From assembly GCA_038891615.1 (NCBI GenBank), contig JAWADY010000001.1:128001-192000 (forward strand): a DNA stretch of 64,000 bases. Reading direction: 5' to 3'. The notes beneath the pieces are model-generated. The model was given only the letters and a program-made list of their open reading frames with translations. It was not told the DNA's origin and ran no database searches. Of the stretch, positions 9,959 to 25,773 are shown one piece after another. The translations under genes were made by a program, and so were the position numbers. Source of the DNA: Candidatus Woesearchaeota archaeon (lineage in GTDB: Archaea; Nanobdellota; Nanobdellia; Woesearchaeales; ARS49). How positions within the stretch are numbered: position 1 is the first letter of the stretch; each line of letters begins with the position of its first letter.

Positions 9959-10597
9959 CTATACTACTTCTACAACCAGTCTTCTTGGTCTTTTGTCAGG
10001 ATAAAGTAAACCACGGTTGTTGTCTTTCCAGCAATTCGTTTCGTCGACATTCTGAATTGTGCTTCCATTAAAAACGCAAATGTTGAATGTGTAAATTCCA
10101 GGCCTCGTCGAGGCTGTATTGGAAAGCTTTGGTTCAATGCTGACAAACAATGGGATTGTTTTAAACTCATTAGGCTTTATTTTTTGTGCACTTTTGTCAT
10201 ATCGAAGCCAATTTTTATTGATGTATGCCTGCTCTGCAATGGTTATTTCAGTAGTTCCATCTGGCGTAAACGCTCTGTCAAATCCAACCATAACATAAAA
10301 GTTTTGCTCATCTAGGAGAATGTTTTGTACGCCAATTCCAAAAACAGCAGAATCTTTTATACCTAACTTTTTTTGCGCAGGCAATACTGCAACTATTTCT
10401 CCTGCTGAGATAAGGCTTTCAAGCTCTTGTTCTGTTTTTTCATCAAGCACGGTCTGTGTTTCTTTTGCTTTAAAAAATATGTTTCTAAGCACAACCATTG
10501 AGCTTCCAAAAATGACTATTGAAATGATAAGAAGAACAATAAAAGTCATGGAAACTTCTATGCCCTTTTTTTGTTTGGGCAGGTGCACAACAATCAC
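9959..10597 (-). CDS. putative class III signal peptide (pilin-like) surface protein
   Basis: KKG|IEVSMTFIVLLIISIVIF: basic-Gly then a hydrophobic helix; beta-rich C-terminus. Confidence 0.6.
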   Translation of the reverse strand: MIVVHLPKQKKGIEVSMTFIVLLIISIVIFGSSMVVLRNIFFKAKETQTVLDEKTEQELESLISAGEIVAVLPAQKKLGIKDSAVFGIGVQNILLDEQNFYVMVGFDRAFTPDGTTEITIAEQAYINKNWLRYDKSAQKIKPNEFKTIPLFVSIEPKLSNTASTRPGIYTFNICVFNGSTIQNVDETNCWKDNNRGLLYPDKRPRRLVVEVV

Positions 10598-10838: not shown

Positions 10839-11378
10839 TTATGCAACTGTTATGAATGAACTTTTGCTGGCGTATACAGGGTCATCATGTAAGGTCTGGC
10901 AACTCGCATTAGTGTAAGACATCACTTCAATAACAAATGCAAAGGTTCCAGCCCTTCTTGGAGTTGTCATAAAAACTGGAATTATAGTTGTGCCAGCAGG
11001 TGGAAGCCTTAGACAATCCCCAGTGACTCTAACATTGAATTCCTCTGTTCCTGGGTCGCTCAAATTTGTATCAAATCTTGTTGCTATTTTATAGTTTAAT
11101 TCTCTTCCTAACATATTTTGGATTCCAATAGCAATTGTTTTGCCTTCGCCTCTCACAAGCTGCATTGATGTCGGAAAAGATATCCTTTCTCCACTTGCCC
11201 TTAACTGTTGTGTTATCTGCTCACGAACTTGTGCAGTAATTTCTTCTTGCAAACCAGTAATTCCCCTAAACTGACCACGGATGAAAACAAGCGCAAGTCC
11301 TAGAACAGTGATTGCAATTACCACAATGACAATTACGTTTATAGAAAGCTCAAGCGCAGCCTTTTTACCCTCTACCAT
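10839..11378 (-). CDS. putative class III signal peptide (pilin-like) surface protein
   Basis: RBS GAGGTG before ATG 11378; MVEGKKA|ALELSINVIVIVVIAITVLGLAL; Ig-like C-terminus with a Cys pair. Confidence 0.65.
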   Translation of the reverse strand: MVEGKKAALELSINVIVIVVIAITVLGLALVFIRGQFRGITGLQEEITAQVREQITQQLRASGERISFPTSMQLVRGEGKTIAIGIQNMLGRELNYKIATRFDTNLSDPGTEEFNVRVTGDCLRLPPAGTTIIPVFMTTPRRAGTFAFVIEVMSYTNASCQTLHDDPVYASKSSFITVA

Positions 11379-11455
11379 CGCACACCTCTTTTTATGCAGT
11401 TTTTCCAAATAAAAGTTTGAATATCTTTATAAAGCTTTCTACACCTTTGTTTTGA

Positions 11456-12052
11456 ATGCTAAATAAAAAAGAGAGAATGCTCTTTAGTGAAGAGCTTGGC
11501 ATAAAGCTCACCAAAAAACCATCAGAAAAAGAGCTTTTTAAATGGTTTCTCGCAGCCATTCTTTTTGGGAAGCCAATACAATTTGGAGTCGCAAAAAGAA
11601 CATTTCAGCTGTTTATTTTAAGAAAGCTGACATCTCCAAAGGCAATTCTTGTTACAGGATGGGATAGACTGGTTGAGCTTCTTGACCTTGGAGGATATGT
11701 CCGTTACGATTTCAGCACTGCAACAAAACTTCTCGAGGTCATGCAAAAATTGCAAAAAGATTATGCCGGAAGTCTTTGGAAGCTTCACGAGTCTGCAGCA
11801 GATTCTGCCGACCTTGAAAAAAGATTGATGGATTTTAAAGGAATTGGCCCTGTAACCACTAACATTTTCCTTCGAGAGCTCAGAGCTGTTTGGCCAAAGG
11901 CAGACCCTGAGCCTCTACCAGCTGTGAAAGAAATGGCAAGAAAGCTAAAAATAAAGCTGCCAAAAAACAGAAAAGCAGACACTTTCATCAGGATTGAAGC
12001 ATCTCTAATAAGGAAATGGCTTGCCTCAAAACATAAAAAAAGGCAGGTCTAA
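11456..12052 (+). CDS. HhH-GPD superfamily DNA glycosylase-like protein
   Basis: ELFKWFLAAILFG, GYVRYD, HhH motif FKGIGPVTTNIFLRELR. Confidence 0.8.
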   Translation: MLNKKERMLFSEELGIKLTKKPSEKELFKWFLAAILFGKPIQFGVAKRTFQLFILRKLTSPKAILVTGWDRLVELLDLGGYVRYDFSTATKLLEVMQKLQKDYAGSLWKLHESAADSADLEKRLMDFKGIGPVTTNIFLRELRAVWPKADPEPLPAVKEMARKLKIKLPKNRKADTFIRIEASLIRKWLASKHKKRQV

Positions 12053-12178
12053 GAAGGAATCATAAACAACAATATCATAATTGCCACTACAGCTAAACAT
12101 CCTTTTTTAGCCAAAGAGTTTTAGTCTTAAAACAAGAAAAGCACAAAATCTAAAAAGTCTTTTACGCTGTTTTTTGAT

Positions 12179-13579
12179 ATGAAAAAACCAACAAAAACCC
12201 TTTCAGGAGTAACGCCGGTTGCAGTAATGACAGAACCTCGTGCTTGCGACCATGGAACCTGCGTTTATTGCCCAAGCCTTGGAGTTTCACAAAGCTACAC
12301 TCCCCGCTCGCCTGCGGTAATGAGAGCGTTGCGTGTGGGATATGACCCCTTTGGTCAAGTAAGGACAAGACTTGAACATTACAAGGCAATGGGTCATTCG
12401 AGGGACAAGATTGAACTGATAGTAATGGGTGGAACTTTTTTGCAATATCCTCTTGACTACCAATACTCCTTTATCAAGCGATGTTATGATGCATTGAATG
12501 GAAAAGAAGCGAGAAATCTTGCTGTTGCAAAGAAAATAAACGAAAGAGCAAAGCACCGTTGTGTTGCCCTTTGCATTGAAACAAGACCAGACAATTGTAC
12601 CGAGAACGATATCAAAAGAATGCTCGATTTTGGCACAACAAGGGTTGAGTTAGGAATCCAAATGCCAGATGACCAGCTTTACGCCATAACCAAACGAGGG
12701 CATTCTGTTAGGGATGTTGTCGAGGCAACAGCGAGGCTCAAGGATTGTGGTTTCAAAGTCGGTTATCACATCATGCCAGGACTTCCAGGAAGCACTCCTG
12801 AAAAAGATCTTGCAATGTTCAAACAGATTTTTGATGACGAAAACTTTAGACCCGATCAAGTAAAGATATATCCAACACAGGTTGTCAAAGGAGCTGAGCT
12901 TGCAGAATGGTATGCTCAAGGCATCTACGAGCCTTACTCAGACCATGTTATTGAGGAACTTTTAGAGAAAATGATTCTTATGGTGCCTGAATATTGCAGG
13001 GTGATGAGAATAATGCGGGAGATTCCTCCGATGTATCTTGTTGCAGGCACAAAATGGGTTAATTTTAGAGCAAAGATTGAGGAAAAGCTCAGAAAAAAGC
13101 ATAGGGCAGATGTCAAGGAAATAAGGTTAAGAGAGATTGGACTTGCTATGCGTGATGGGGTGAAAATAGATCAAAAAATTGAAATAAAAGTACTGCCATA
13201 TGCAGCAAGCAAAGGAAAAGAATATTTTATAAGTGTTGTCAACAACCAGAACATACTATTCGGATTGTGCAGGCTTAGGATTCCCCACAAGACTTTTCTT
13301 CCTGAGCTTCATGATGCTGCTCTTGTACGAGAGTTACATGTTTATGGGCAGACGGTTGGGCTTAAAGATGTGATAGATAAGGTTTGCGCTGACACGACAA
13401 TGTTGAGAGTGTGGCAGCACAAGGGCCTTGGAAAAAGGCTCATGGAAGAAGCTGAAAGAATTGCAAAAGAAGAAGGGATGAGAAGGATTGCGGTTATTAG
13501 TGGAGTTGGTGTTCGCGAGTATTACAGAAAACTTGGCTATAGGCTTAATGGAAGTTATATGTGTAAAACCTTAGGATGA
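12179..13579 (+). CDS. elp3: Elp3 tRNA uridine(34) acetyltransferase (radical SAM + KAT)
   Basis: CDHGTCVYCP, QSYT, ETRPD, VELG, KIYP, VRELHVYG, QHKGLG, ISGVGVREYY. Confidence 0.96.
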   Translation: MKKPTKTLSGVTPVAVMTEPRACDHGTCVYCPSLGVSQSYTPRSPAVMRALRVGYDPFGQVRTRLEHYKAMGHSRDKIELIVMGGTFLQYPLDYQYSFIKRCYDALNGKEARNLAVAKKINERAKHRCVALCIETRPDNCTENDIKRMLDFGTTRVELGIQMPDDQLYAITKRGHSVRDVVEATARLKDCGFKVGYHIMPGLPGSTPEKDLAMFKQIFDDENFRPDQVKIYPTQVVKGAELAEWYAQGIYEPYSDHVIEELLEKMILMVPEYCRVMRIMREIPPMYLVAGTKWVNFRAKIEEKLRKKHRADVKEIRLREIGLAMRDGVKIDQKIEIKVLPYAASKGKEYFISVVNNQNILFGLCRLRIPHKTFLPELHDAALVRELHVYGQTVGLKDVIDKVCADTTMLRVWQHKGLGKRLMEEAERIAKEEGMRRIAVISGVGVREYYRKLGYRLNGSYMCKTLG

Positions 13580-13631
13580 TAAGTTTTGAGAAAAAGAGCG
13601 TTCTTTTACAACGAGCTTTAATGAGTTTTAT

Positions 13632-14222
13632 TTATTTCTTTGTATACTTTAGGCGTTCGTCACCACAGAGATTTATATAAACAGATTTCCACCAGTCCGA
13701 AGCGTGTATGTTTGGGTCATAAACTAATTTACTTATTATTTTGCGTTGATTACCACTGAGTATCCGATTTTTCGGCACATTCTTCTTTTTTGCCAGCTCG
13801 TCATAAATGCCAAGCAAGTGGTCGTAGAGCTGTCCATCTGCATTAATTTTGCCTATTTTAGCAATTTTATTTGTTTTAAGATAAGGAACAAGGTGCTCGA
13901 GAACAACGCCAAATCCTAAAAAGTCATCATAGGCATCAAGCTTTTCTTTTAAAGGCTCTTTTGCAAAATAATCTAGCAAATTTGAATTATTCTCAAGATT
14001 TAACTTTTTCAGTTCTCCTTTAAGCCTTTCTCGGCTTATTGGTATATCTGGGAGAGGGTTGCTCGTATAGTTGTTTTCGCTAACTTTTTTTTCAGAAACA
14101 GCTTCCCAAACAACATCTCTCCTTATTTCCTTCTTTCCTTCGTGTAGGACTAGATACACATTATAGCGATTAAAACTCGTTGGCTCATAGTCAATAAAGG
14201 CTTCAATTCCGTCAGCTTCCAT
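13632..14222 (-). CDS. hypothetical protein
   Basis: ORF from 14279; ATG 14222 preferred (AGGAG RBS, TTTATATA upstream); no family recognised. Confidence 0.6.
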   Translation of the reverse strand: MEADGIEAFIDYEPTSFNRYNVYLVLHEGKKEIRRDVVWEAVSEKKVSENNYTSNPLPDIPISRERLKGELKKLNLENNSNLLDYFAKEPLKEKLDAYDDFLGFGVVLEHLVPYLKTNKIAKIGKINADGQLYDHLLGIYDELAKKKNVPKNRILSGNQRKIISKLVYDPNIHASDWWKSVYINLCGDERLKYTKK

Positions 14223-14275
14223 AGTTTCGCTCCTTAAAAAGAGACAAGAATACAAATGGATATATAAATGTTTTG

Positions 14276-15724
14276 TCACTTCACAGTTATTATTTCCTCA
14301 TGTAAACGTATCCTGTTCTTACCTGTTCTTTTTGCTGCCAAAAGAGCACCATCTGAAGCCTTAATGGTAAGATTCAGTGCTTCAATCAGCTTCTCTTCAG
14401 AAACGGCTAATCCTGTTCCTTTGAATGTTGCAACACCACCGCTGACAGTCACAGCAGCCCTATCATATATGCCAAGTTTTGGTAAAATCTCTTTCGTCTT
14501 TTCCTCTAAAGAAGCCTTAATCCTTTCTGCAATGACATAAGCATCACTTTGATTTGCAAAAACCGCTAAAACAAATTCCTCGCCTCCGAATCTACAAAGG
14601 AGGTCCTCCCGCCTTTTAAGTGATGCAATGGAATTTGATACTATTTTCAAGACAGCATCTCCAATATCGTGACCATATTTATCATTTATTTGTTTGAAAT
14701 CGTCTATGTCAAAAAAGATTATAGAAAGCTGTGCACCAAGCTGTTGAGCAGCCATGAATCGCTTTTTTAAGTCTCTATCAAAATATCTTCTATTGAACAG
14801 CCTCGTCAATGGGTCTGTGATGGACTCCCATGCTCTCTCAAAAAATGTTGTTTTCAACTTGTATAAAGACATTGTTCCATATCTTGAAAGCGTGGCTTTA
14901 CACGCATCATCCAGAAGACCAGAATATGCATGCAATCGAGAGAGGTACTCCAAAACCTCTTCAGGTGTTGTCAGAGTTCTCAAATCTTTTTTGATATCAG
15001 CCAGAGTTATCTTCTTGTATTTTGAGACAAGCCTCTTAAGTTTTGTTACAACTGATATTTTCTCCTTCAAAAACTTATTGAGAGGCTCAACTATTCTAGA
15101 TTTTTCTTCATAAACAAGTTGGTAGAGGTTGCTTGCAGCTGCTGCTAGCTTTGTTTTCAGCCATTCCAGCTCTTCCTTGCCTGCCCTTTCCAACGACTGG
15201 AGTACATCAAGTTCAATGTCTAAATTTGCTTGCTCGCGTGTGATAAGCTCAGCTAAAGAGTTGACGATTCTTGCCAACTCCTCTTCGATGCTCCACTCCG
15301 TCCGTTTTAGCTCTAATGAAAGAGCCACTTGCTGAGATAAAGCGGATAGCTTTTCTTTTAGTGCATCCCCAGGCTTACCTTCGGCATAAGCCTTTTGTAT
15401 CAGCGCAAGTTCTTGCGTGAAAATAGAATCTTCAACAGGCCTTAGAGCAAGCTCTTTTTTCCGAATCTCCTCTTCCTCTTTTTTGTATTTCAAAATCTCT
15501 TCAAATGCAACCTTTAGGTCTTTTTCGATTTTATCAATGAGTGGTTTTAAAGAGACATCTTTTCCAGCAATTTTGTCGCTTATCGCATCTATAAGCCGTA
15601 TGACATCCTTTCTATGGTCCCGCAATGAAGAAATTCTTTTTTCAAAACTGGCTATGACCTCCTGCTCATGCACACCAAGCTGCAGGAGCAGGTCTAATAT
15701 TTTTTGAATATCGTTGTTTGACAT
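14276..15724 (-). CDS. coiled-coil + GGDEF-domain diguanylate cyclase
   Basis: TDPLTRLFNRR, DIDDFKQINDKYGHDIGD, RRED I-site, RFGGEEF, TVSGG, AAKRTGKNR; N-terminal ~290 aa helical. Confidence 0.93.
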   Translation of the reverse strand: MSNNDIQKILDLLLQLGVHEQEVIASFEKRISSLRDHRKDVIRLIDAISDKIAGKDVSLKPLIDKIEKDLKVAFEEILKYKKEEEEIRKKELALRPVEDSIFTQELALIQKAYAEGKPGDALKEKLSALSQQVALSLELKRTEWSIEEELARIVNSLAELITREQANLDIELDVLQSLERAGKEELEWLKTKLAAAASNLYQLVYEEKSRIVEPLNKFLKEKISVVTKLKRLVSKYKKITLADIKKDLRTLTTPEEVLEYLSRLHAYSGLLDDACKATLSRYGTMSLYKLKTTFFERAWESITDPLTRLFNRRYFDRDLKKRFMAAQQLGAQLSIIFFDIDDFKQINDKYGHDIGDAVLKIVSNSIASLKRREDLLCRFGGEEFVLAVFANQSDAYVIAERIKASLEEKTKEILPKLGIYDRAAVTVSGGVATFKGTGLAVSEEKLIEALNLTIKASDGALLAAKRTGKNRIRLHEEIITVK

Positions 15725-15727
15725 GCC

Positions 15728-16846
15728 TTAAAGAATAAACATCTTTTCAACAATCTTTTTTGCCTTTTCGCGTTTTCTTTGATGACTTTTAAGGAATCTT
15801 TCAAGCTTTGTAATAAGGATCTGCTTTAGCTCACTAGTGAGCAGGCTACCACTTTTGTAATCATCATAAATCTTTTGCAGCTTTGCATCATCAGGTTCGA
15901 ATAATGCCCGTAAGTATTGGAATGCAACATCGATATCAGGATTGCCGCCTTTTTTTCTATGTTCTGCAATTGTTGGCTGACCTCCTGAAAAAGCATATTT
16001 TCTTATTTTTAACGCCACCTCTTCAAGGCTGTCTGTCAACGCTATGAATGATGTTGGATCCGATGAAGACATCTTCCCACCCTTTAAGCCTGGAATGAAA
16101 ATATGATAGATTGAACTGGGTTGAAAAAACTTCAGCCCTTTTATTCTTTGACAAATGTCTCTAGTTAATCTTATGTGAGGATCTTGGTCAATCCCGACAG
16201 GAACAACGACAGGCATCGATCCCTCGAATTCAGGAAGTTGTGGATGCAATATGTCGGAAGCTTGCAAAAGTGCAGAAATCATTTTTCCAGGAGTAATCTC
16301 ACCATAAACCGATTTGAACTCATTAAAAGTGACATATCTTGCTACTAAATTCTGCAATCTATAATATGCATTTGATTTGGTTGCATTGTTTGAACGGCCG
16401 CTTTGAAAGTAAATGTCACAGTTCTTGCGCTTAAGCCCAAGAGCAAAATAGTTTGTTATGTAATCATCCAAAGCTATTCTCCTGCTTTCTTCAAGGCTTT
16501 GCGCTCTTGCTGTGTATGCCTCGATGTCTGCAACTGCAATGTAAAGTCTTGCACCGAGCCTTTGCCAAAAAATCATTTGTTGTGCAACAAGCATGTGACC
16601 AAGATGAAACTTTCCGGTTGGCATTAGCCCTGTCATCATGACAAAAGGCTTTTTTGCTTTTATGGAATCAAGAATTTGTTGCAAATCCCTATGAGCAAAA
16701 ATTATTCTACGCCTAAAAAGATGGCTTTCTTCAAACTCTTTCGGAAGCCTCTCAATCAAGGAAAGCCCAAACTCCTTCACGAGCCTTGAATAATCTATTT
16801 TTCCAGAAACCTCCCAAGGGGTTATAAATGTTTCATCACGCTGCAT
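15728..16846 (-). CDS. trpS: tryptophanyl-tRNA synthetase (archaeal type)
   Basis: ITPWEV, FAHRD, HLGH (HIGH), VPVGIDQDPH, KMSSS, KYAFSGG. Confidence 0.96.
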   Translation of the reverse strand: MQRDETFITPWEVSGKIDYSRLVKEFGLSLIERLPKEFEESHLFRRRIIFAHRDLQQILDSIKAKKPFVMMTGLMPTGKFHLGHMLVAQQMIFWQRLGARLYIAVADIEAYTARAQSLEESRRIALDDYITNYFALGLKRKNCDIYFQSGRSNNATKSNAYYRLQNLVARYVTFNEFKSVYGEITPGKMISALLQASDILHPQLPEFEGSMPVVVPVGIDQDPHIRLTRDICQRIKGLKFFQPSSIYHIFIPGLKGGKMSSSDPTSFIALTDSLEEVALKIRKYAFSGGQPTIAEHRKKGGNPDIDVAFQYLRALFEPDDAKLQKIYDDYKSGSLLTSELKQILITKLERFLKSHQRKREKAKKIVEKMFIL

Positions 16847-16895
16847 AAGTAGTTGGCTACTAAAGGCTTATTTAAAGCTAGCGCTCATGAAGGCT

Positions 16896-18746
16896 TTACA
16901 AAGCAATCTCCACATCTCTACCGAATATTTTTTTAAGGCTTTCAAACAGAGCCTCTCTTACAAAAACGCGCTGTGGAATTGCAATCCTTACTAATGCTTT
17001 TTCGAGCTCTTCAGGACTTGCATCTTCAAGTTCACCAAGACTACCATCTGGGTTTATTTTTGCTTTAGAAATCTTCTTTGGTTCTGCATCGATATCGTGA
17101 GTTATGAAAGCTGTTTCGCCCAAAAGCAAAACTTCGCCAAATTTTTCTCCGCGTTTTACTTTTATTTTCGCCCTCTCAAGCTCATAAACCCGTTTGCGTT
17201 GCATCCACTCAACAATCGCTCTTATGAATTCGCTTGCCTCACGTCTAACCTTTTCAACTTCAACCTTCGTAAGCTTGCCCGAATCGTAATCCTGCCGTGC
17301 TTTCATAATTGAATGTAAGAGCCTTGCCAATTTCGGAGAAAGTTTTCCTGTTGCAACAAGTTTTTCTTCAAATAAATCAACAAGTTCTGCTTCAGGAATG
17401 TTCTCGCGGCCTTCAAGCCTCAGCGCATCCCGCAGAACAGCCAGAATGCTATCATAAATGTTCAACACAGATTCTCTATCTTTCAACTCTTGTATTTTTG
17501 CAAAAAGCTCTTTAATCTTTTTCAGATAGTCTTCAGCGCCTGTCAGCAGCTGGTCTACTTCAACGCCTGAGATTTGTTTTTTCTCTGCATGCTCAAGCTC
17601 CTTCCTTGTAGCAATAACTTTTTCAAGTAAATTGACATCCTTATTCTCAAGCATCCCTTCTTTTTTAACAAAAATCTCTCGCATTAGTTCAGGTGTTTCC
17701 TTTGGGGTTGGTGGTGGCAAACCATAAAGCATTAAGGCAGCTTGACTTGGAGTTAGGACTGCCCAAAAAATGTCTTCCATCCCTATATCACGGAGTTTGA
17801 ATCTTGCGCGCTCTAACATCTGCTCTCCACCAGACATGAACATATCAATAGCTTCTACACTAGGTTTTATTCGTCCCATCCTGAGAAGCTGCTTCCATGG
17901 CATGAAGATTCCTCTGTCATAAAATGGCACGCCGTCCCTCAAAAATGTAAAAATGACAGGATTTGCTTCTCTGATGTTGTCCCAAAACTCTGTGAGAATG
18001 TATACCTGGATGTTCAGCTTATTTCTAATGCCGGTTATCTCTCCGGCTTCAATTCCCATTCCTATGATTATCGCCCTTAGCTTATCCTTGAGTTCTGCCC
18101 TCGTCATCCTCTTCACATCCGTATCGTCAATGACGACAAAAACATCTATATCTGATTCCTTTGTTGCACGGCCTTGAACAAGGCTTCCTGCAAGCACATA
18201 AGCAACAATGTATTTCTCAAACTTTTTCAGGACCATATTCTTATGAATCTCTGCAATTTTTATTGCTGAGAGCATTCCTCTGTCAAATATTGGTGCTGAA
18301 AGTGCTATCATTTCAAGAAAATCATACTTTCCATCATAGCAAGCTTGCCAAACTTCTGAAAGCAAAAGGGCTTGAGGAGCAAGGTTTGGGTCAATTTCCT
18401 TTGCGGAGGCTTCAAGTATTGAAACTAATTTTCCTTTCAATTCATCTTTTGTCATCTTTGTAGGTTCTGTATCATCGACAAGCACGAGTATGTTTATTTT
18501 CTTCTCTTTGTCAGGTTTTTCTATGTCTTCTTTGCTTGGAGGAAGAAGCGCAATTCCGACGATATATTTTTCAAATTTTTCAAGTATCAACTTTTGGAAA
18601 CGCTCTAATTTTGCTTTTATTTCAGCAAGTTTTTCCTGAAGTTCCTTTGGTAGCTTTTCAATACCTTCGACAGCTTGGCCAGCAGTGCCACCCATTTTTT
18701 TTGTTTCATCCTCCTTCTTTACAGTTTCTTTTGCTTTTTTTGCCAT
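16896..18746 (-). CDS. duplicated nucleotidyltransferase (MNT) - HEPN fusion protein
   Basis: Second NTase copy GSLVQG...SDIDV; first copy degenerate; HEPN-like region with RKELEH; second degenerate HEPN-like region. Confidence 0.8.
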   Translation of the reverse strand: MAKKAKETVKKEDETKKMGGTAGQAVEGIEKLPKELQEKLAEIKAKLERFQKLILEKFEKYIVGIALLPPSKEDIEKPDKEKKINILVLVDDTEPTKMTKDELKGKLVSILEASAKEIDPNLAPQALLLSEVWQACYDGKYDFLEMIALSAPIFDRGMLSAIKIAEIHKNMVLKKFEKYIVAYVLAGSLVQGRATKESDIDVFVVIDDTDVKRMTRAELKDKLRAIIIGMGIEAGEITGIRNKLNIQVYILTEFWDNIREANPVIFTFLRDGVPFYDRGIFMPWKQLLRMGRIKPSVEAIDMFMSGGEQMLERARFKLRDIGMEDIFWAVLTPSQAALMLYGLPPPTPKETPELMREIFVKKEGMLENKDVNLLEKVIATRKELEHAEKKQISGVEVDQLLTGAEDYLKKIKELFAKIQELKDRESVLNIYDSILAVLRDALRLEGRENIPEAELVDLFEEKLVATGKLSPKLARLLHSIMKARQDYDSGKLTKVEVEKVRREASEFIRAIVEWMQRKRVYELERAKIKVKRGEKFGEVLLLGETAFITHDIDAEPKKISKAKINPDGSLGELEDASPEELEKALVRIAIPQRVFVREALFESLKKIFGRDVEIAL

Positions 18747-18756
18747 TCAAATCACC

Positions 18757-19527
18757 TTACTGTTGCAAGAGCACGATTTGTTCAAGAGGTCTTGGCACGC
18801 TTATGGAACCTGAAGCGAATTGATAGAAAAGGGCAAGAGGACTCACTCCTTTTGAGAGCTGTTCTGAAACAAAGTTGAAAGCAACATCATGAATACCGTT
18901 TTGCGCTGGCCTTGATAAAAAAGGAGCTATTGACTTTGAAAGTCCAGCCACGTCATTTTCATAGATAGTTTTCATCCACCCAAAGCTAAATGCGTATGCT
19001 TTTGCTTCCTCGTCAATAGGATTCTGCAAGCTTTTTGTCAATACATGACCAATCTCATGACCCACTGTCAGCATAACCTTATCTAAATGACCTTTTTTTA
19101 CGAACACTCTGCTTATTCCGCGCTCTTCATTTAATGAAAACCCTTCTACAATGCCAGCAGCGTTGTTCATACGCGAGAACTCCTCTGGCTCACAAAGTTC
19201 TATTGCAATATTTCCTGGGAATTCCTTCTTCATCATAAGCTTGAATGTCTTCCTAATGTATTCAAAAATCTCAGAGAGCTCACTGACAAAGGGCGAGGTT
19301 GGTCTGTTTTTTAGAAGGAAATTCTCGGCAACAAAAAAATGACTAAGGCTTTTATGCGAAAGAGAAAAGTTGTAATCAGACAGATGACTTTCATGCTCAT
19401 AACCACGAATGTCTGGAAATTGAATATGATAATTTTGATTGGATCGAGGAATATAGCCAAAAACAGGTTGGAAAAAATAAGTCCTTACAACCGGAAATGT
19501 AGAGTAATAAATACTTCCCATTTTCAT
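18757..19527 (-). CDS. zincin metallopeptidase-like protein (IrrE/ImmA-like motif)
   Basis: LTVGHEIGHVL...EEAKAYAF. Confidence 0.7.
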   Translation of the reverse strand: MKMGSIYYSTFPVVRTYFFQPVFGYIPRSNQNYHIQFPDIRGYEHESHLSDYNFSLSHKSLSHFFVAENFLLKNRPTSPFVSELSEIFEYIRKTFKLMMKKEFPGNIAIELCEPEEFSRMNNAAGIVEGFSLNEERGISRVFVKKGHLDKVMLTVGHEIGHVLTKSLQNPIDEEAKAYAFSFGWMKTIYENDVAGLSKSIAPFLSRPAQNGIHDVAFNFVSEQLSKGVSPLALFYQFASGSISVPRPLEQIVLLQQ

Positions 19528-19538
19528 TCAAAAACTTT

Positions 19539-19745
19539 TTATTTCAGCTTTTCTTCTAGAGGTTTTTTGGCTTTTTTTGCTTCCTCGACAATGTCCACTC
19601 CTAAATCCTTCAGCGCTTTGATGTGCATTTGCATTAGTTGCTCTACTATTGCCACAAGCCTTACAAGTTCCTCACGCTCTTTTGCGAGTGTCGTAAGCGA
19701 GCCCTTATGAAAGCCTATTTGTTCTTCTTTTGAAACTTCTGCCAT
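19539..19745 (-). CDS. small conserved-looking coiled-coil protein
   Basis: RBS GGGGTGA; EQIGFHKGSLTTLAKEREEL...HIKALKDLGV. Confidence 0.75.
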   Translation of the reverse strand: MAEVSKEEQIGFHKGSLTTLAKEREELVRLVAIVEQLMQMHIKALKDLGVDIVEEAKKAKKPLEEKLK

Positions 19746-19921
19746 TTTTCACCCCCAATAATAGGAAATATTACATCAAGCACACTATTTAAAGATGGTG
19801 TGACAAAAAAGTCATAGTAGCTGGTTTTGTTGAAAAACAAAAACCACATATTTTGAAAATGTGGTGTTAATTGTTGATGATTTCTTCAAGAACAAAAAGA
19901 ATATTTTTTGCCAAAACAAAA

Positions 19922-20026
19922 CGCCACCGCCCGGATTTGAACCGGGAATCCCTTGCGGGACTGGTTTGCTTTAAGCCAAATAGGCTTGTTCAAGACCAGC
20001 GCACTACCAGGTTATGCGACGGTGGC
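19922..20026 (-). tRNA. tRNA-Ser(UGA) with 22-nt intron at 37/38 (19967-19988)
   Basis: GCCACCG/CGGTGGC acceptor, G73, CTGGT-CT-TGA-A|intron|A-ACCAG, long variable arm TCCCGCAAGGGA, TTCAAAT T-loop. Confidence 0.93.
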
Positions 20027-20090
20027 GTGAAAGCAAATACAACAATAAAAAGAAATGAATGGGATTTATAAATTTTGGTCTTCTACATAC

Positions 20091-20894
20091 TTATTCTATT
20101 TTGAAGACCATTGACTTTGGTGTTTGAGTGGAAAAAATTAGGCTAAACTTGTTTATAGGTTTACCAGTGAAAAGCCTTTTGACAACAGCTTTTTCTGACA
20201 CACCATCCAAAAGTTTTATTGTGTCTTCGGTAACAAAAAGATATGCTGTTGTTGCACAGTCCGCATAGCTAGAAGGTTCAAGGTTGCGAGAAATCTTTTG
20301 CTCACATGCAAGCATTTTAAAAATCTCAGTTGAGAGTTTATCGTCTTCAGTGGTCAGTGCCTTTTCAAGCCAAAAAAATATTTCTGCGTCTTTTTCATTT
20401 TCAAGGTTAAATGCGCGGGCGCCTTTTGGAAGCGCACAGGGCAAGGCATTTGTCGCTTTTAATCTGCGCACACCATAGTAGGCTACCACGAATACTGCTA
20501 CGAGAATTATAAGAGCAAAAACAACTGCTATTGCTTTTTTGCCTCCACTTCGAACAGGGCTTGTGCCAGCAGAATTGTTTTTTGCATTGTTAAAGCCTTT
20601 ATGTTTTTTGTTCGGGTTGCGGGCATTTTTTGAGTTTGAAACGGGTTTTGATACTTTTGGTTGACGCTTTGCTATGATTGCATTTGCCGCTCTAGAAACA
20701 TATTTTGCCTGGGAAACGCGCTTAGTCTGTTCATTAAAACCTGTTTCGCTTTTCACTCTTTCAGTGTTGTTTATTTCCTTTTCAAGCTCGTCAAACTCGC
20801 GATTCAACTCGAAAGAAGTCTGAGCCTTTTCAGCCTTTTCCTTTTCAAGTTCTTCAGCAACATCCAGTGAAGTTGACCAATGCGACATTTGCAC
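20091..20894 (-). CDS. hypothetical single-TM membrane protein
   Basis: Charged/low-complexity N-half, TM AIAVVFALIILVAVFVVAYYGV, C-terminal domain with Cys. Confidence 0.65.
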   Translation of the reverse strand: MQMSHWSTSLDVAEELEKEKAEKAQTSFELNREFDELEKEINNTERVKSETGFNEQTKRVSQAKYVSRAANAIIAKRQPKVSKPVSNSKNARNPNKKHKGFNNAKNNSAGTSPVRSGGKKAIAVVFALIILVAVFVVAYYGVRRLKATNALPCALPKGARAFNLENEKDAEIFFWLEKALTTEDDKLSTEIFKMLACEQKISRNLEPSSYADCATTAYLFVTEDTIKLLDGVSEKAVVKRLFTGKPINKFSLIFSTQTPKSMVFKIE

Positions 20895-20945
20895 ACTCCT
20901 GTTTGTGACACGATTCTAAAGTGGTGGTTTAAAAGCTTTGTTGTT

Positions 20946-21434
20946 TTAAAATAGACTAATTTCTTTTATCCTCGCTGCATAAAATTCCTTTTTTGTGAGG
21001 ACAGAGCCAACGCGCCAAAGAATAAAACCAATTACAAAAAAACTAATGGCAAGGACTGTTACGCTTGGCACTGTTCGCTCGAGATAAGCTGCGATTGCAG
21101 GACCAACGGCTGGAAAATAATCGACAAGAGGCATAAGAATCACTTCCTTGCCAAAAAGTATGAAAAGAATGGCGAGAATTCCAGGGACAAAAGTCATCAA
21201 GCCAAGCCTCTTTACTGTCTGCCCAAAAGAGCCTTCCACCATGAGCATTATTAAGATTGCAATACCAACAAGTGCAATTGATGCAGTGAAAGCCCTTGGC
21301 GCAAAATGTGTTTGAATGACAACAAGAGGGATTAAAGCCGTAAGACCAGTAACATAAGCAAGTCTTGCAAGATAACGCGCAATAGCCCTAAAAATCACAG
21401 TTACAAGCCCCTTTTTTTGTTGCATTATTAACAT
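20946..21434 (-). CDS. hypothetical multi-TM membrane protein
   Basis: ~4 hydrophobic helices. Confidence 0.65.
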   Translation of the reverse strand: MLIMQQKKGLVTVIFRAIARYLARLAYVTGLTALIPLVVIQTHFAPRAFTASIALVGIAILIMLMVEGSFGQTVKRLGLMTFVPGILAILFILFGKEVILMPLVDYFPAVGPAIAAYLERTVPSVTVLAISFFVIGFILWRVGSVLTKKEFYAARIKEISLF

Positions 21435-21530
21435 GAAATGCCATCTTTTAAAAATATTTTTGTTTAAAAACTTAGTGAATTTTCAACAGAAATTACTGCC
21501 TCTTATTACATAGAAAAAATAAGGAATCTG

Positions 21531-22238
21531 TCAAAGCATCCCAGGAGCCAAAGGTGCTTTTTTCTTTATCTCACCGACATATCTGCAATACTCACAGCTC
21601 TCAGATTGTTTTGGAATGCCGCCTTCAAGAATTTGATATGCCCTTTTTATTAGTGCCACAGCATCATCAGCTTTTATTTCAACCTTGCGAAGGTCTGAGT
21701 GGAATGCTATGCTGGTTTTTTCATTGCTGCTCAGAATTCCTTCGGGGTGCAAGAAAAGTAGATATGCATAATCATGTGTTTTATGTCCATTGTTTCTTAG
21801 GAGGAAATTGTAAATCGAAAGCTGAGGTAGGTAATAATCTATAGTGTTTTCTTTTGCAGCCGAACCGCGCGTTTTGAAATCTAGCACAACAAGTTTGTCA
21901 TCAACTATAAGAAGATCATCAATTGCCCCCTTAATGACACTCCCCTTATCATCCTTCCAATTTAGACCTTTTAAATTGTTTCTCCAAACACTAAGAAGTG
22001 AATATTCTTTGAAAAGATTTGCCTTACCTTTGAGCTGAGCGAGCATTGGCGGAAGCTCATTTTTGCTCCTAAAAGAATCAAAGTGTTCTTTAATTATCCT
22101 GTCTATGCCAGACGGAAGAGTGGGAAAAGCGCCACGTGGCCTCACAATACCTTTTTTAAAATGAAGCCAAAAGCACCTTGGGCATTCATCTAAGATGTTA
22201 AGGGTTGATGCAGTGAAATTATACCCCATAGTAGTCAA
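21531..22238 (-). CDS. PD-(D/E)XK nuclease, Cas4/RecB-like
   Basis: CPRCFW, GAIDD, VLDFKT, QLSIY, C-terminal CEYC. Confidence 0.88.
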   Translation of the reverse strand: MTTMGYNFTASTLNILDECPRCFWLHFKKGIVRPRGAFPTLPSGIDRIIKEHFDSFRSKNELPPMLAQLKGKANLFKEYSLLSVWRNNLKGLNWKDDKGSVIKGAIDDLLIVDDKLVVLDFKTRGSAAKENTIDYYLPQLSIYNFLLRNNGHKTHDYAYLLFLHPEGILSSNEKTSIAFHSDLRKVEIKADDAVALIKRAYQILEGGIPKQSESCEYCRYVGEIKKKAPLAPGML

Positions 22239-22407: not shown

Positions 22408-23409
22408 ATGCCGATAGAACTTAAACAATTAAAAGGGGAAGAATTTATAAAAAAGATATTATCCGGAGAAAAGGATTTCAGTGGAATAAAACTAGAAGTT
22501 GGGTTTGATCTTTCTGGCCATGAAGCTTTTGGACAACTATGCGCATATCTGAAAAAAGAAGACCTCCAAAAAAACCCCATCATATTAAGTGCATCTGAAT
22601 TGCAAGGAATTATAGCAAAAGGAATATATCTTCCATATGTGAAGGCAGACGTAGTTAATCTAAGAAAAGCAAATCTCGAAGAAGCTTATCTGAAGAATGC
22701 AGAAATGAAACTAGCAAACCTTGAAAAAGCAAACCTTAAAGGAGCAGACCTTGAAAAAGCAGACCTTTACAAAGCAAGATTTTACAGAGCATATCTTGAG
22801 AAAACAAACCTCAGCGGAGCAATTCTTTCTCGTGCAAACTTCAAACAAGCATATCTTGCAAAAGCAGACCTAAAAAGCACAAACCTTTATGGAGCAACTC
22901 TCTCAGAAGCAAACCTCTATGAAGCAAACATTGAAGAGGCAAACCTTTACAACACGGATCTTAGCAAAGCAAATCTTGAGAGGGCATGCTTACGGTCAGC
23001 AGACCTGAGCGAAGCAGATCTGTCTTCAGCAGAACTTTTTGAAGCGAACATTGAAAAAGCAAATTTAAGTGCGACAAAGTGCATGTTTTCAAATTTCAGA
23101 AGGGCAAACCTTAAAGAAGCAAATCTTTCCAGGGCAAACTTTGAGTGCGCAAACCTTTCCGAAGCATATCTGGAAAAAGCAAACCTTTCTAAAGCAGATT
23201 TCGAAGAAGCTGACCTTTGGAAAGCAAAGCTTAAGGAAGCAGACGTTTCAAGAACAACCTTTTATAAAACAAACCTTGAAGATGTCAAGGATATAGAATC
23301 TGCATTAAATTTAGAACGCGCACTTTTTGAAGCAGTCACAATTTCAGAAAAAGAAAGGAAAATTTTTGAAAAAATATTTGCAGAAAAAAAATTTTTCGTT
23401 GTTGAATAA
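22408..23409 (+). CDS. pentapeptide repeat protein
   Basis: Long run of A(N/D)LxxA-type pentapeptides (ANLEKANLKGADLEKADL...). Confidence 0.95.
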   Translation: MPIELKQLKGEEFIKKILSGEKDFSGIKLEVGFDLSGHEAFGQLCAYLKKEDLQKNPIILSASELQGIIAKGIYLPYVKADVVNLRKANLEEAYLKNAEMKLANLEKANLKGADLEKADLYKARFYRAYLEKTNLSGAILSRANFKQAYLAKADLKSTNLYGATLSEANLYEANIEEANLYNTDLSKANLERACLRSADLSEADLSSAELFEANIEKANLSATKCMFSNFRRANLKEANLSRANFECANLSEAYLEKANLSKADFEEADLWKAKLKEADVSRTTFYKTNLEDVKDIESALNLERALFEAVTISEKERKIFEKIFAEKKFFVVE

Positions 23410-23751: not shown

Positions 23752-25773
23752 ATGCAACTTGATGATGAACTAAAACAAGACCTCATAAAAATGATAGAAG
23801 AAGGCAAAGAGATTCCTGAATCTTTCAAAAATCTTCTATTTCCGCCTAAAGAAGAGCCAAAAGAGATGGAGTTGAAATATGGCATTAAGGAAAGAGAGGA
23901 AGACATTTTGGCTGACACAATGGCAATGCCATTTCAGCCTGTAAAGCAGTTTGGCAATGTGAAGGAAGGCGAATGGCACAACATGCTTATTTTTGGCGAC
24001 AACTTGCAGGCATTAAAGTATCTGAAAAAACTTCAGGACGAAGGAAAACTAGAAAAGATAAAACTTGTTTTCATTGACCCTCCATTTGGCACAGGAGACA
24101 TTTACGATGCAAAAGGCGAACCTGCTTATTCTGCAAAACTACAAGGAGCAGAATTCATTGAGTTTTTAAGAAAAAGATTAATTTTCTTAAGAGAATTGCT
24201 TGCAGATGACGGAAGCATTTATGTTAGGATGGATTATCATTTCGGACATTATGTTAAAGTCATAATGGATGAGATTTTTGGGAAGGAGAATTTTAGGAAT
24301 GAGATAGTTGTTAGAAGATCTACACAAATGGGAACTACAGCAGATAGATTTCCAACAGCTTTGGATTCTATTTTTTGGTACTCTGTAGACTCGAATAATT
24401 TTATTTTTAATCAAATAAAACGAAAAAGAATTTGTAGGTATTGCGGACAGGAAAGAAAATCTCAATGGATTTTAATGCATTCGCCGGGAATAAGACACCC
24501 TCCTGAAAGAATATTTTTTGGCAGAAAGTTATTACCACCGAAAGGAAGGCACTGGACTTTTATACAAGAAAAAATTGATGCTTTAATTAAGAAAGGCGAA
24601 CTGAGAATAAACAAAAAGATAAAATATATTGATCTAGAAGGAAAAGAAATAATTGGAATGCCAGAATACCTCCAATCACCAGAAGAGACAGTTGATTCAA
24701 ATTGGTCAGATATTTCAGGATACAGCAAAACGTGGAACTACCCTACTGAAAATTCCGAGGAACTCTTAGAGAGAGTAATCTCAGCATCCTCAAATCCTGG
24801 CGACCTTGTTCTCGATTGCTTTGCAGGCAGCGGCACAACTGGAGCGGTAGCTGAAAAGCTTGGCAGAAGATGGATTATGGTTGATTGTTCCAAGCTGGCA
24901 ATTTATACAATGATAAAGAGATTGCATAATTTGAGAAAAGAAATTGGCAACAAAGGCGAGCCTCTAAAGCCAAAGCCGTTTGTTCTTTATAATGCTGGCT
25001 TGTATGAAGATCATGACTTTATTTTAAAGATGGGTGAAGAGAATTTCAAGAGGTTTGCTCTTGATTTGTTCCAAGCAGAGCCGAAAGATTTTGATATTAA
25101 TGGCTTGAAAATGGATGGAGTTTTGTTTAATTGTCCTGTGAAGGTTTTCTCTCAAAAAGGCTATTTGACAGAGGAGTATATTGACCAATTACATGAAACA
25201 GTTGGAGAATACATCAAGGCAAGAATGTTTATTATTGCACCAGCAAGCAGAGTTTATTTCTTGCAGGATTACATAGAAAAGGATGGAATAAGATATTATG
25301 TTCTAAGAATTCCTTACTCTGTTATTGATGAATTGCATAAAAGAGCTTTCACAAGACCTTTACAGCCGACTTCTGCTAAAGATATTAATCAAAATATAGA
25401 ACAAGTGGGATTTGATTTTATACATCCGCCGAATGTCAAGGCAGAATATTTCAGAAGAAAGCCAAAAGATAAACTGATTGAAGAAGAGCTTGTTATTGAA
25501 ATAAAAGAGTTTGAAGCTGTGCAGAGAGCAAAAGAACCTATTGAATTCAAAGATTCTAAAGAAGCTTTGAGTATGGTTCTAATTGACAAAGATTACAATG
25601 GCAAATACTTCAATATGACTGACTACTTTTTTGCAGATGATATCAAAAAAGAAGGCTACAAAGTAAGAATCCCTGCAAAAGAAGTTGGTGAGAAGGTTTG
25701 CATCATTTACTTGGATATTTTTGGGAATGAGAGGGTTGAGGTTAAGGAGATAAAGGAGTTTAAGAGAGGATGA
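23752..25773 (+). CDS. mod: type III restriction-modification DNA methyltransferase (Mod)
   Basis: LIFGDNL, IDPPF (motif IV), FRNEIV, YPTE, DCFAGSGTT (motif I); beta-class order; C-terminal DIFGNE. Confidence 0.92.
   Translation: MQLDDELKQDLIKMIEEGKEIPESFKNLLFPPKEEPKEMELKYGIKEREEDILADTMAMPFQPVKQFGNVKEGEWHNMLIFGDNLQALKYLKKLQDEGKLEKIKLVFIDPPFGTGDIYDAKGEPAYSAKLQGAEFIEFLRKRLIFLRELLADDGSIYVRMDYHFGHYVKVIMDEIFGKENFRNEIVVRRSTQMGTTADRFPTALDSIFWYSVDSNNFIFNQIKRKRICRYCGQERKSQWILMHSPGIRHPPERIFFGRKLLPPKGRHWTFIQEKIDALIKKGELRINKKIKYIDLEGKEIIGMPEYLQSPEETVDSNWSDISGYSKTWNYPTENSEELLERVISASSNPGDLVLDCFAGSGTTGAVAEKLGRRWIMVDCSKLAIYTMIKRLHNLRKEIGNKGEPLKPKPFVLYNAGLYEDHDFILKMGEENFKRFALDLFQAEPKDFDINGLKMDGVLFNCPVKVFSQKGYLTEEYIDQLHETVGEYIKARMFIIAPASRVYFLQDYIEKDGIRYYVLRIPYSVIDELHKRAFTRPLQPTSAKDINQNIEQVGFDFIHPPNVKAEYFRRKPKDKLIEEELVIEIKEFEAVQRAKEPIEFKDSKEALSMVLIDKDYNGKYFNMTDYFFADDIKKEGYKVRIPAKEVGEKVCIIYLDIFGNERVEVKEIKEFKRG

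Follow-up and report, generated by a model that had tools for sequence, protein, structure and literature searches.

The gene at 14276–15724 (minus strand) of the window, by which we mean the whole stretch of 64,000 nucleotides analysed here from a Candidatus Woesearchaeota genome (assembly GCA_038891615.1, contig JAWADY010000001.1), encodes a class I GGDEF protein with an intact-looking active site. The proteins that share its architecture form a previously undescribed, lineage-wide family of helical-bundle cyclases with a helical control domain of their own, which is new here. We consider it probable that the window protein is an active and native diguanylate cyclase, one that is cytosolic, long inherited and controlled by dimerisation, of the order that we take to be Woesearchaeales in what is presumably the class Nanoarchaeia.

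The cyclase and its helical-bundle family

The gene is an open reading frame (ORF) of 482 amino acids (aa) with an ATG start, and its identity is given by Pfam, motifs and a structural model. Pfam places the catalytic domain at residues 302–471 (14312–14821, minus), PF00990 being matched there over its full length (profile positions 2–161) with an E value of 2.1e-35 and 122 bits against a curated cut-off of 23.8. The catalytic elements listed by the original prediction are all found at the spacing it gave (D304, D339, N347, D356, GGEEF, K465). They comprise the wide turn D304-P-L-T307, the metal and transition-state stretch D339-I-D341-D-F-K344, the guanine-reading set N347, H352 and G355-D356, and the C-terminal motif K465..G468-K-N470. 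Motif alignment also places the I-site R371-R-E-D374 (14603–14614, minus), followed after five residues by R378-F-G380GEEF384, so that the active-site loop G380–F384 (14573–14587, minus) is present together with its preceding Arg. In enzymes of this kind DxLT forms the wide turn, D339 is a metal residue, K344 the transition-state residue, and N347 and D356 read the guanine. A further source for these roles, and for the Ser by which Hypr enzymes are told, is section 2.4 of PMC13725321 (Mol Microbiol 2026); residue 356 is an Asp, as had been predicted, and the signature Ser of the Hypr GGDEF enzymes, which make cyclic GMP-AMP (cGAMP), is absent. The AlphaFold model of the cyclase has a predicted local distance difference test score (pLDDT) of 82 and a predicted template modelling score (pTM) of 0.48, and its GGDEF part superposes on PleD and GcbC with a Z score of 23.8 and a root-mean-square deviation of 2.0–2.2 Å over 162–169 residues.

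The N-terminal domain, residues 1–300 (14825–15724, minus), is defined by the predicted structure and by a profile family, and has no Pfam family; indeed no Pfam family exceeds its cut-off in the N-terminal part of any family member. The original prediction had described a soluble coiled coil that was lineage-specific and had no recognisable bacterial sensor. The Pfam result and the spread of the family over Woesearchaeales relatives bear out the second part, whereas the model departs from a single coiled coil, as it has a helical bundle at about residues 11–218, then a small helical cap, then a signalling helix (residues 273–302) that enters the DxLT wide turn. The most conserved N-terminal part, residues 239–256 (14957–15010, minus; I239, T240, D243, P254 and E256 conserved), sits in the small cap just before the signalling helix, and we infer it to be a candidate input or dimer contact. 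The nearest structures to the bundle are designed four-helix bundles and the sensor domain of QseE at a generic level (Z 11.5–12.6), and the ESM Atlas gave no match for the domain; the absence of a specific fold match is provisional because the domain was folded only within the whole protein.

Residues 1–300 of the query alone matched in 16 of 76 genomes of the Woesearchaeota family to which the source genome belongs, and a 17-row profile of the N-terminal domain raised this to 25 of 77 genomes in 12 of 29 genera with one copy each, the 25 being the 17 alignment seeds and 8 new genomes. In other families of the order the profile matched in 22 of 393 genomes. The domain is fused to a GGDEF domain in all 25 loci of the family and in all ten outside loci that were checked, one of these being from an unpublished genome (G445) and the other 12 of the 22 not having been cut out. 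Searches by protein words returned so many GGDEF and coiled-coil candidates that just 3–4 full-length members came through, and pattern scans gave 0 then 3 loci in genome contigs, 1 in metagenomes and 0 in viral contigs.

A FastTree phylogeny of 191 GGDEF domains puts the window protein in a clade of 12 family members (support 0.92) and recovers a second clade of 12 members (also 0.92), the deep branches being unresolved. A single origin of the 25 members is not rejected, as in an alignment of 62 rows the constrained tree scores 19.4 log units above a quick free tree (approximately unbiased test, p-AU 0.81). The ratio of non-synonymous to synonymous substitution rates (dN/dS) is 0.08–0.28 for both domains over four pairs, in two of which dS is saturated, and the cleanest pair gives 0.10 and 0.11 for the two domains; judged by these ratios, both are under purifying selection. 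GG[DE]E is kept in all 26 family members, with the final Phe in 15. As to the feedback I-site, its five-residue spacing in the window protein stands as predicted, whereas its Arg is variable, being found in 17 of the 26 members and in 4 of the 12 nearest.

That the gene is a bacterial contaminant, a misassembly or a one-off recent transfer deserves hardly any credence, and is already refuted by the distribution of the family and by the assembly. Contigs from all four public runs cover 11000–19600 unbroken and with 0 differences, which answers the doubt raised earlier about a misassembly; the runs come from two studies labelled hot-spring metagenome and may themselves be the source of the window DNA, and therefore rule out a binning or joining slip whilst adding no independent biology. 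There was no RNA dataset among the public runs listed for the region. Foreign origin would fit the codon-usage score of the cyclase, which ranks at the 7th percentile among 472 ORFs of the genome, low yet within range, and the top single-sequence database matches, which are bacterial-type GGDEF domains of about 40% identity. These matches, however, align with the GGDEF part only, full-length orthologues occur across the 12 genera and in other families, and the named relatives are Candidatus Woesearchaeota. The gene has a guanine-plus-cytosine (GC) content of 0.397, and its GC at third codon positions is ordinary (44th percentile of the same ORFs). The same architecture in about a third of the family genomes and the dN/dS values speak against a one-off transfer, and the gene is native, as first proposed.

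The cyclase is the sole GGDEF match in its source genome (661 kb in 5 contigs, 97.9% complete, 0.19% contaminated), and such matches are common in its relatives, with PF00990 found in 72 of the 76 other family genomes and in 113 of 151 relatives overall, a set that includes the unpublished genomes G009, G024, G034, G046, G053, G062 and G066. At least two matches occur in 43 of the 76 by a hand count, in which matches are not strict copy numbers, and an even sample of the class gave a match in 163 of 401 genomes, some of them weak and on contigs without a contamination check. The view that intact GGDEF proteins are rare in archaea, with which the analysis began, therefore fails for this lineage. 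The 31 top-scoring loci yielded 28 GGDEF ORFs with intact motifs, mostly with GAF- or PocR-GAF-like N-termini by eye; within the family PocR-GAF-GGDEF or GAF-GGDEF proteins (L003, L005, L007, L010, L011, L016, L021 and others) are the most frequent type, in which inspection by eye shows a 'TCxN' motif with a conserved Cys and, past the domain, a C-terminal tail that is conserved too. Two records titled 'uncultured Methanosarcinales archaeon' (L084, L085) are genomes of the Woesearchaeota family according to the genome tool; we take the titles for depositor labels, and such labels could mislead surveys of GGDEF proteins.

The downstream partner and the wider circuit

Downstream of the cyclase is a conserved gene that the original prediction had overlooked, encoding a protein of 196 aa (13632–14222, minus) with invariant D99, G124 and G157. 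It has an ATG start with a purine-rich Shine-Dalgarno-like site, and its frame opens at a GTG at 14279 that overlaps the cyclase stop. The partner lies directly 3' of the cyclase and on the same strand in 8 of the 25 genomes, which represent 5 genera with differing upstream neighbours, so that a small gene linked to the cyclase is present, as in SiaD–SiaC, and all eight loci fall inside the 12-member cyclase clade that holds the window protein. On leaving one out, six of seven core partners recover each other (E 5e-8 to 3e-21) and the seventh reaches E 0.18. The partner profile had 0 matches in 393 genomes of other families, with one weak neighbour in G220 (E 0.006), and an exhaustive search of 1.84 billion representatives gave 15 matches of which 14 are family-like, the fifteenth (P0135) being dropped as a chance match to a repeat protein. 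A match in G062 (E 0.008, four stops) was likewise dropped as chance. The downstream ORFs of G015, G072, G074, G059, G071 and G026 resemble the partner by eye and were left uncounted, with leave-one-out E values of at least 0.049; the profile-profile probability against the partner is 53% for G059/G071 and 0.3% for the G015 group. A second class of small helical neighbours failed the leave-one-out test (best E 0.0085, six of seven above 0.6 or absent).

The model of the partner (pLDDT 84, pTM 0.83) is a three-stranded meander plus helices. Pfam has no family for it, Foldseek no match at E ≤ 0.001 and the ESM Atlas no match at or above 0.8, and the best VIA-align score over 48,161 chains is Z 3.9, weak RNase H/actin-like and ferritin rows having been rejected as generic. 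Complex prediction of cyclase with partner scored 0.00 in two runs with no folded controls, and weighs neither way.

By analogy with SiaC, the 196-aa protein may be the cognate regulator of the cyclase, an assignment that we make tentatively. A different role would be that of an output or off-switch, the partner being a new receptor or hydrolase of cyclic di-GMP (c-di-GMP) and the two genes a self-contained cassette, and this we think unlikely. It would suit a genome that has no known receptor and no EAL or HD-GYP enzyme, and a partner that retains D84, D99 and a G-x-Q motif at about 20% identity and remains 3' of the cyclase when the pair moves to another chromosomal place; on the other side the partner lacks any invariant RxxD, RxxxR or metal-site motif, and with 14 sequences among 1.84 billion and none in the 393 genomes it is too narrowly spread to serve the GGDEF proteins of 163 of 401 genomes. 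The same mobility of the module, and the fast evolution of its second gene, could be read as defence signalling in which infection triggers synthesis of a cyclic dinucleotide and the partner acts as a toxic effector. This is highly improbable, since in the loci read the neighbours are housekeeping genes rather than defence islands (no PADLOC search was made), the cyclase is single-copy per genome, viral contigs gave 0 matches with two patterns, and no effector fold was recognised in the partner.

The interval between the genes for eIF2-gamma and phosphomannomutase (L034, L035, L043–L049, L060, L074, L077) differs in content between genomes, which have there a cyclase by itself, a cyclase and partner in one or the other orientation, or a paralogue of the partner by itself; the interval resembles a hot spot of insertion or rearrangement.

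The mechanism that we propose takes its first steps from GGDEF enzymology. Two GGDEF domains would each bind guanosine triphosphate (GTP) and Mg2+ (D339, E382) with the guanine read via N347 and D356, and c-di-GMP would be made only once the two domains meet. We infer that the 300-aa helical domain would serve as the dimerisation and input module; because the signalling helix enters the DxLT turn as in the stalks of WspR, DgcB and SiaD, a rearrangement of the bundle would switch the enzyme, and binding of product at R371/D374 would cap output in the window protein. The co-transcribed 196-aa protein may act as a cognate regulator that binds the helical domain in the way that SiaC binds the SiaD stalk. 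A receptor from none of the known families would read the signal, which would probably be removed by an enzyme that is neither EAL nor HD-GYP, for which two DHH-DHHA1 proteins are candidates, or by dilution. By analogy the likeliest output would be regulated attachment, by way of the type IV pilus machinery.

Other components were sought in the source genome and throughout the family. The source genome encodes the two DHH-DHHA1 proteins and, at C2:105947–106657, a T2SSE-family ATPase of the VirB11/T2SSE kind, and has no diadenylate cyclase (DAC; control positive). Regex scans with receptor motifs gave chance-level matches only, and the c-di-GMP riboswitch RF01051 was found in 0 of 77 family genomes, though no control genome matched and class II was not searched. 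EAL was likewise absent from all 77, as was MshEN over its cut-off. HD_5 matched in 12 of 77, with three strong HD-GYP proteins. These three (L086–L088, in G066, which is unpublished, G069 and G075, all of one genus) look intact, and their genes are convergent with that of a sigma-70 region 2/4 protein. Such a neighbour points to a segment that was transferred or is foreign, a sigma factor of bacterial type being unusual for Woesearchaeota. PilZ occurs in 4 of 77 family genomes (G029, G001, G052, G068), which are 4 of the 8 genomes of one genus, as single-domain genes at one conserved locus (L126:1432–1869, L127:1435–1848, L128:1369–1806, and L129) between an ArsR-type regulator with a SIMPL gene and a glycogen-debranching-like gene. 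RxxxR and DxSxxG are intact in the three PilZ sequences printed, one of the four proteins is annotated MEM2916014.1, and on these motifs the PilZ proteins of this genus are candidate archaeal c-di-GMP receptors. With PilZ confined to one genus among the 77 genomes, c-di-GMP is probably read within some Woesearchaeota, whilst most must use something else.

A number of points weigh against an active and regulated cyclase. The source genome has 0 matches to PF00563 (EAL), PF13487 (HD_5) and PF01966 (HD), and 0 to PilZ, MshEN and ComFB, with positive controls in both cases; the lack of an EAL, HD-GYP or PilZ protein, first reported for the window, thus holds genome-wide, and with neither such an enzyme nor a known receptor there is no complete canonical c-di-GMP circuit. 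The genus with PilZ has no helical-bundle cyclase (0 of 8 genomes), though it does have GAF-like GGDEF proteins. Within the family the transition-state Lys is replaced by Gly in 5 of 26 members and the final Phe is missing in 11 of 26, which means that activity can decay. With respect to the partner, seven of its eight positives are profile seeds and G016 alone is new, 16 of 25 cyclases have no partner at E ≤ 0.1 beside them and one a weak match (G059, E 0.029), and in G022 there is a partner paralogue without a cyclase. As for the literature, no archaeal cell has yielded c-di-GMP so far according to the accessible text of PMC10249747 and PMC13725321, the latter of which gives there no assay result for any helical-bundle family member, and found 2 of 11 cloned proteins from metagenome-assembled genomes consistently active across all three assays.

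If catalysis were weak or silent, the protein could be a scaffold that binds GTP or c-di-GMP, its helical domain acting by protein contact. The degeneration of catalytic residues that some members show would agree with this, as would the lack of a dedicated phosphodiesterase (EAL 0/77, strong HD-GYP 3/77) and the catalysis-independent phenotypes of several archaeal GGDEF proteins in section 2.13 of PMC13725321. We hold it to be distinctly unlikely, because metal, guanine and transition-state residues are all retained in the window protein and in the 11 relatives nearest to it, and the GGDEF part is under purifying selection. In favour of an active cyclase, other archaeal GGDEF proteins show activity in reporter strains (PMC13725321, sections 2.13–2.14).

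The imbalance between cyclases and other components (GGDEF 72/76 against EAL 0/77, PilZ 4/77 and MshEN 0/77 over cut-off) admits two further readings. A host-dependent archaeon might aim c-di-GMP at another cell, so that a host or neighbouring bacterium becomes sessile and forms biofilm, and it would then make sense that cyclases are many while receptors and phosphodiesterases are almost lacking; in PMC9938205 cyclase genes are 1.7-fold commoner in sediment-attached genomes of ultra-small prokaryotes, with the Candidate Phyla Radiation (CPR) and DPANN pooled. The cyclase, however, has no export signal or membrane anchor on inspection, and the sensor-fused paralogues and PilZ proteins of relatives point to an internal circuit, so that this is quite improbable. 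Alternatively, the Woesearchaeales and their class may run an old multi-enzyme c-di-GMP network with undescribed receptors and off-switches, which would be needed where cyclases occur in about 95% of the family and about 40% of the class and EAL, HD-GYP, PilZ and MshEN are nearly absent; the cyclase and its new-fold partner would then be a cognate pair, and the partner the first cyclase regulator or c-di-GMP receptor specific to archaea. We regard this larger claim as possible but doubtful.

Gene neighbourhood and other features of the window

The upstream neighbour of the cyclase is a class I tRNA synthetase gene of the W/Y family (15728–16846, minus), which from its motifs is putatively trpS and of archaeal type. 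The cyclase ATG lies 3 nt past the stop of this gene, as the original prediction had said. The housekeeping operon in which it saw the cyclase embedded does not hold, as trpS adjoins the cyclase in 1 of 25 loci (upstream DNA being short or absent for G067, G026 and G020), and the others lie beside eIF2-gamma/phosphomannomutase, HerA or other genes, the names of which were read from the sequences. Conserved trpS synteny is therefore rejected, and the synthetase is a neighbour here only rather than part of a conserved module.

Two genes upstream of the cyclase and on the same strand is a 616-aa protein (16896–18746, minus) with a Pol-beta nucleotidyltransferase domain at residues 174–226, a domain that appears to be duplicated within the protein. 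About 3 kb downstream of the cyclase and partner are two pilin-like ORFs (9959–10597 and 10839–11408, both minus), which have no Pfam match and have N-termini like class III signal peptides (KKG/KKA then a hydrophobic helix). An Rfam search of 11000–22000 gave one tRNA and one chance match; the tRNA (19922–20026, minus) spans 105 bases, is probably intron-containing and was not called by ARAGORN. ARAGORN did call a tRNA-Pyl with a CTA anticodon beside a tRNA-Cys (G000, C3:51975–52069), which may be a miscalled intron-containing tRNA. Finally, a pentapeptide-repeat protein (22408–23409, plus) and a DNA methyltransferase-like ORF (23752–25773, plus) stand at the start of a lower-GC stretch at about 23–29 kb (GC 0.33–0.35), a possible restriction-modification island.

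Comparison with known systems

SiaC is reportedly encoded in the same gene cluster as SiaD in Pseudomonas aeruginosa. SiaD itself is described in the accessible part of PMC8457831 as a soluble long-stalk cyclase without a classical sensor that is activated by its small partner SiaC. The GGDEF domain plus helix of SiaD (PDB 7e6g) aligns with the window cyclase at Z 22.2. SiaD, however, has a plain stalk where the window cyclase has a 300-aa bundle, SiaC is absent from the rows listed in the fold searches with the partner (best Z 3.9), which itself has no Pfam family, and there are no kinase or phosphatase genes beside the window module. WspR, DgcB, SadC and PleD share with the window protein the class I GGDEF domain, the RxxD I-site and a helix continuing into the DxLT turn (Z 22.7–23.8, Foldseek E 3e-14); unlike that group it has no REC, GAF, PAS or membrane domain, and an input domain outside Pfam. 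A Hypr GGDEF (6d9m) has the same fold (Z 23.1), and differs by its signature Ser where the window protein has Asp356.

With regard to archaea, earlier accounts treat GGDEF proteins as nearly absent or possibly contamination (PMC5847659, PMC10249747 and PMC10086821, in their accessible parts), and the accessible parts of PMC12448109 and PMC13375341 add nothing on DPANN. The closest work is PMC13725321, in which several archaeal GGDEF proteins, DPANN included, are active in Salmonella and E. coli reporters. These belong to the same enzyme class in DPANN genomes as the window protein, so archaeal cyclase activity as such is already published and is not a first here. One member of the helical-bundle family is present in that work, as MBI4145595.1 (Candidatus Woesearchaeota) is 100% identical to the member from G048, and a full-length alignment with the window protein gives 25% identity (E 4e-27); the supplement, as far as it is accessible, gives it a template and cloning primers, with no plasmid, mutant or result, and the accessible main text does not mention it. 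The accessible text describes neither the helical N-terminal domain nor a partner gene, both of which are described here. We found no publication on the prevalence of GGDEF proteins in Woesearchaeota, the helical domain, the partner or an archaeal PilZ, subscription journals being largely outside our coverage.

To the activity already published we add a family of helical-bundle cyclases and its partner gene, the prevalence of GGDEF proteins across the lineage, and PilZ proteins in a sister genus. PMC13725321, which made no systematic survey according to its accessible text, calls archaeal GGDEF proteins sporadic and not multicopy; against this picture of sporadic, single-copy genes, the counts in the present lineage make them near-universal and often multiple. 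The same paper leaves their distribution, phosphodiesterases and receptors as open questions in its accessible parts, and the input domain, the partner, for which no fold match was obtained, and the sister-genus PilZ are concrete proteins that make these questions testable. As the source genome has one cyclase and no known receptor, it offers a minimal setting in which to look for the archaeal target of c-di-GMP, and the approximately 620 proteins of its 661 kb are a set that can be screened for c-di-GMP binding.

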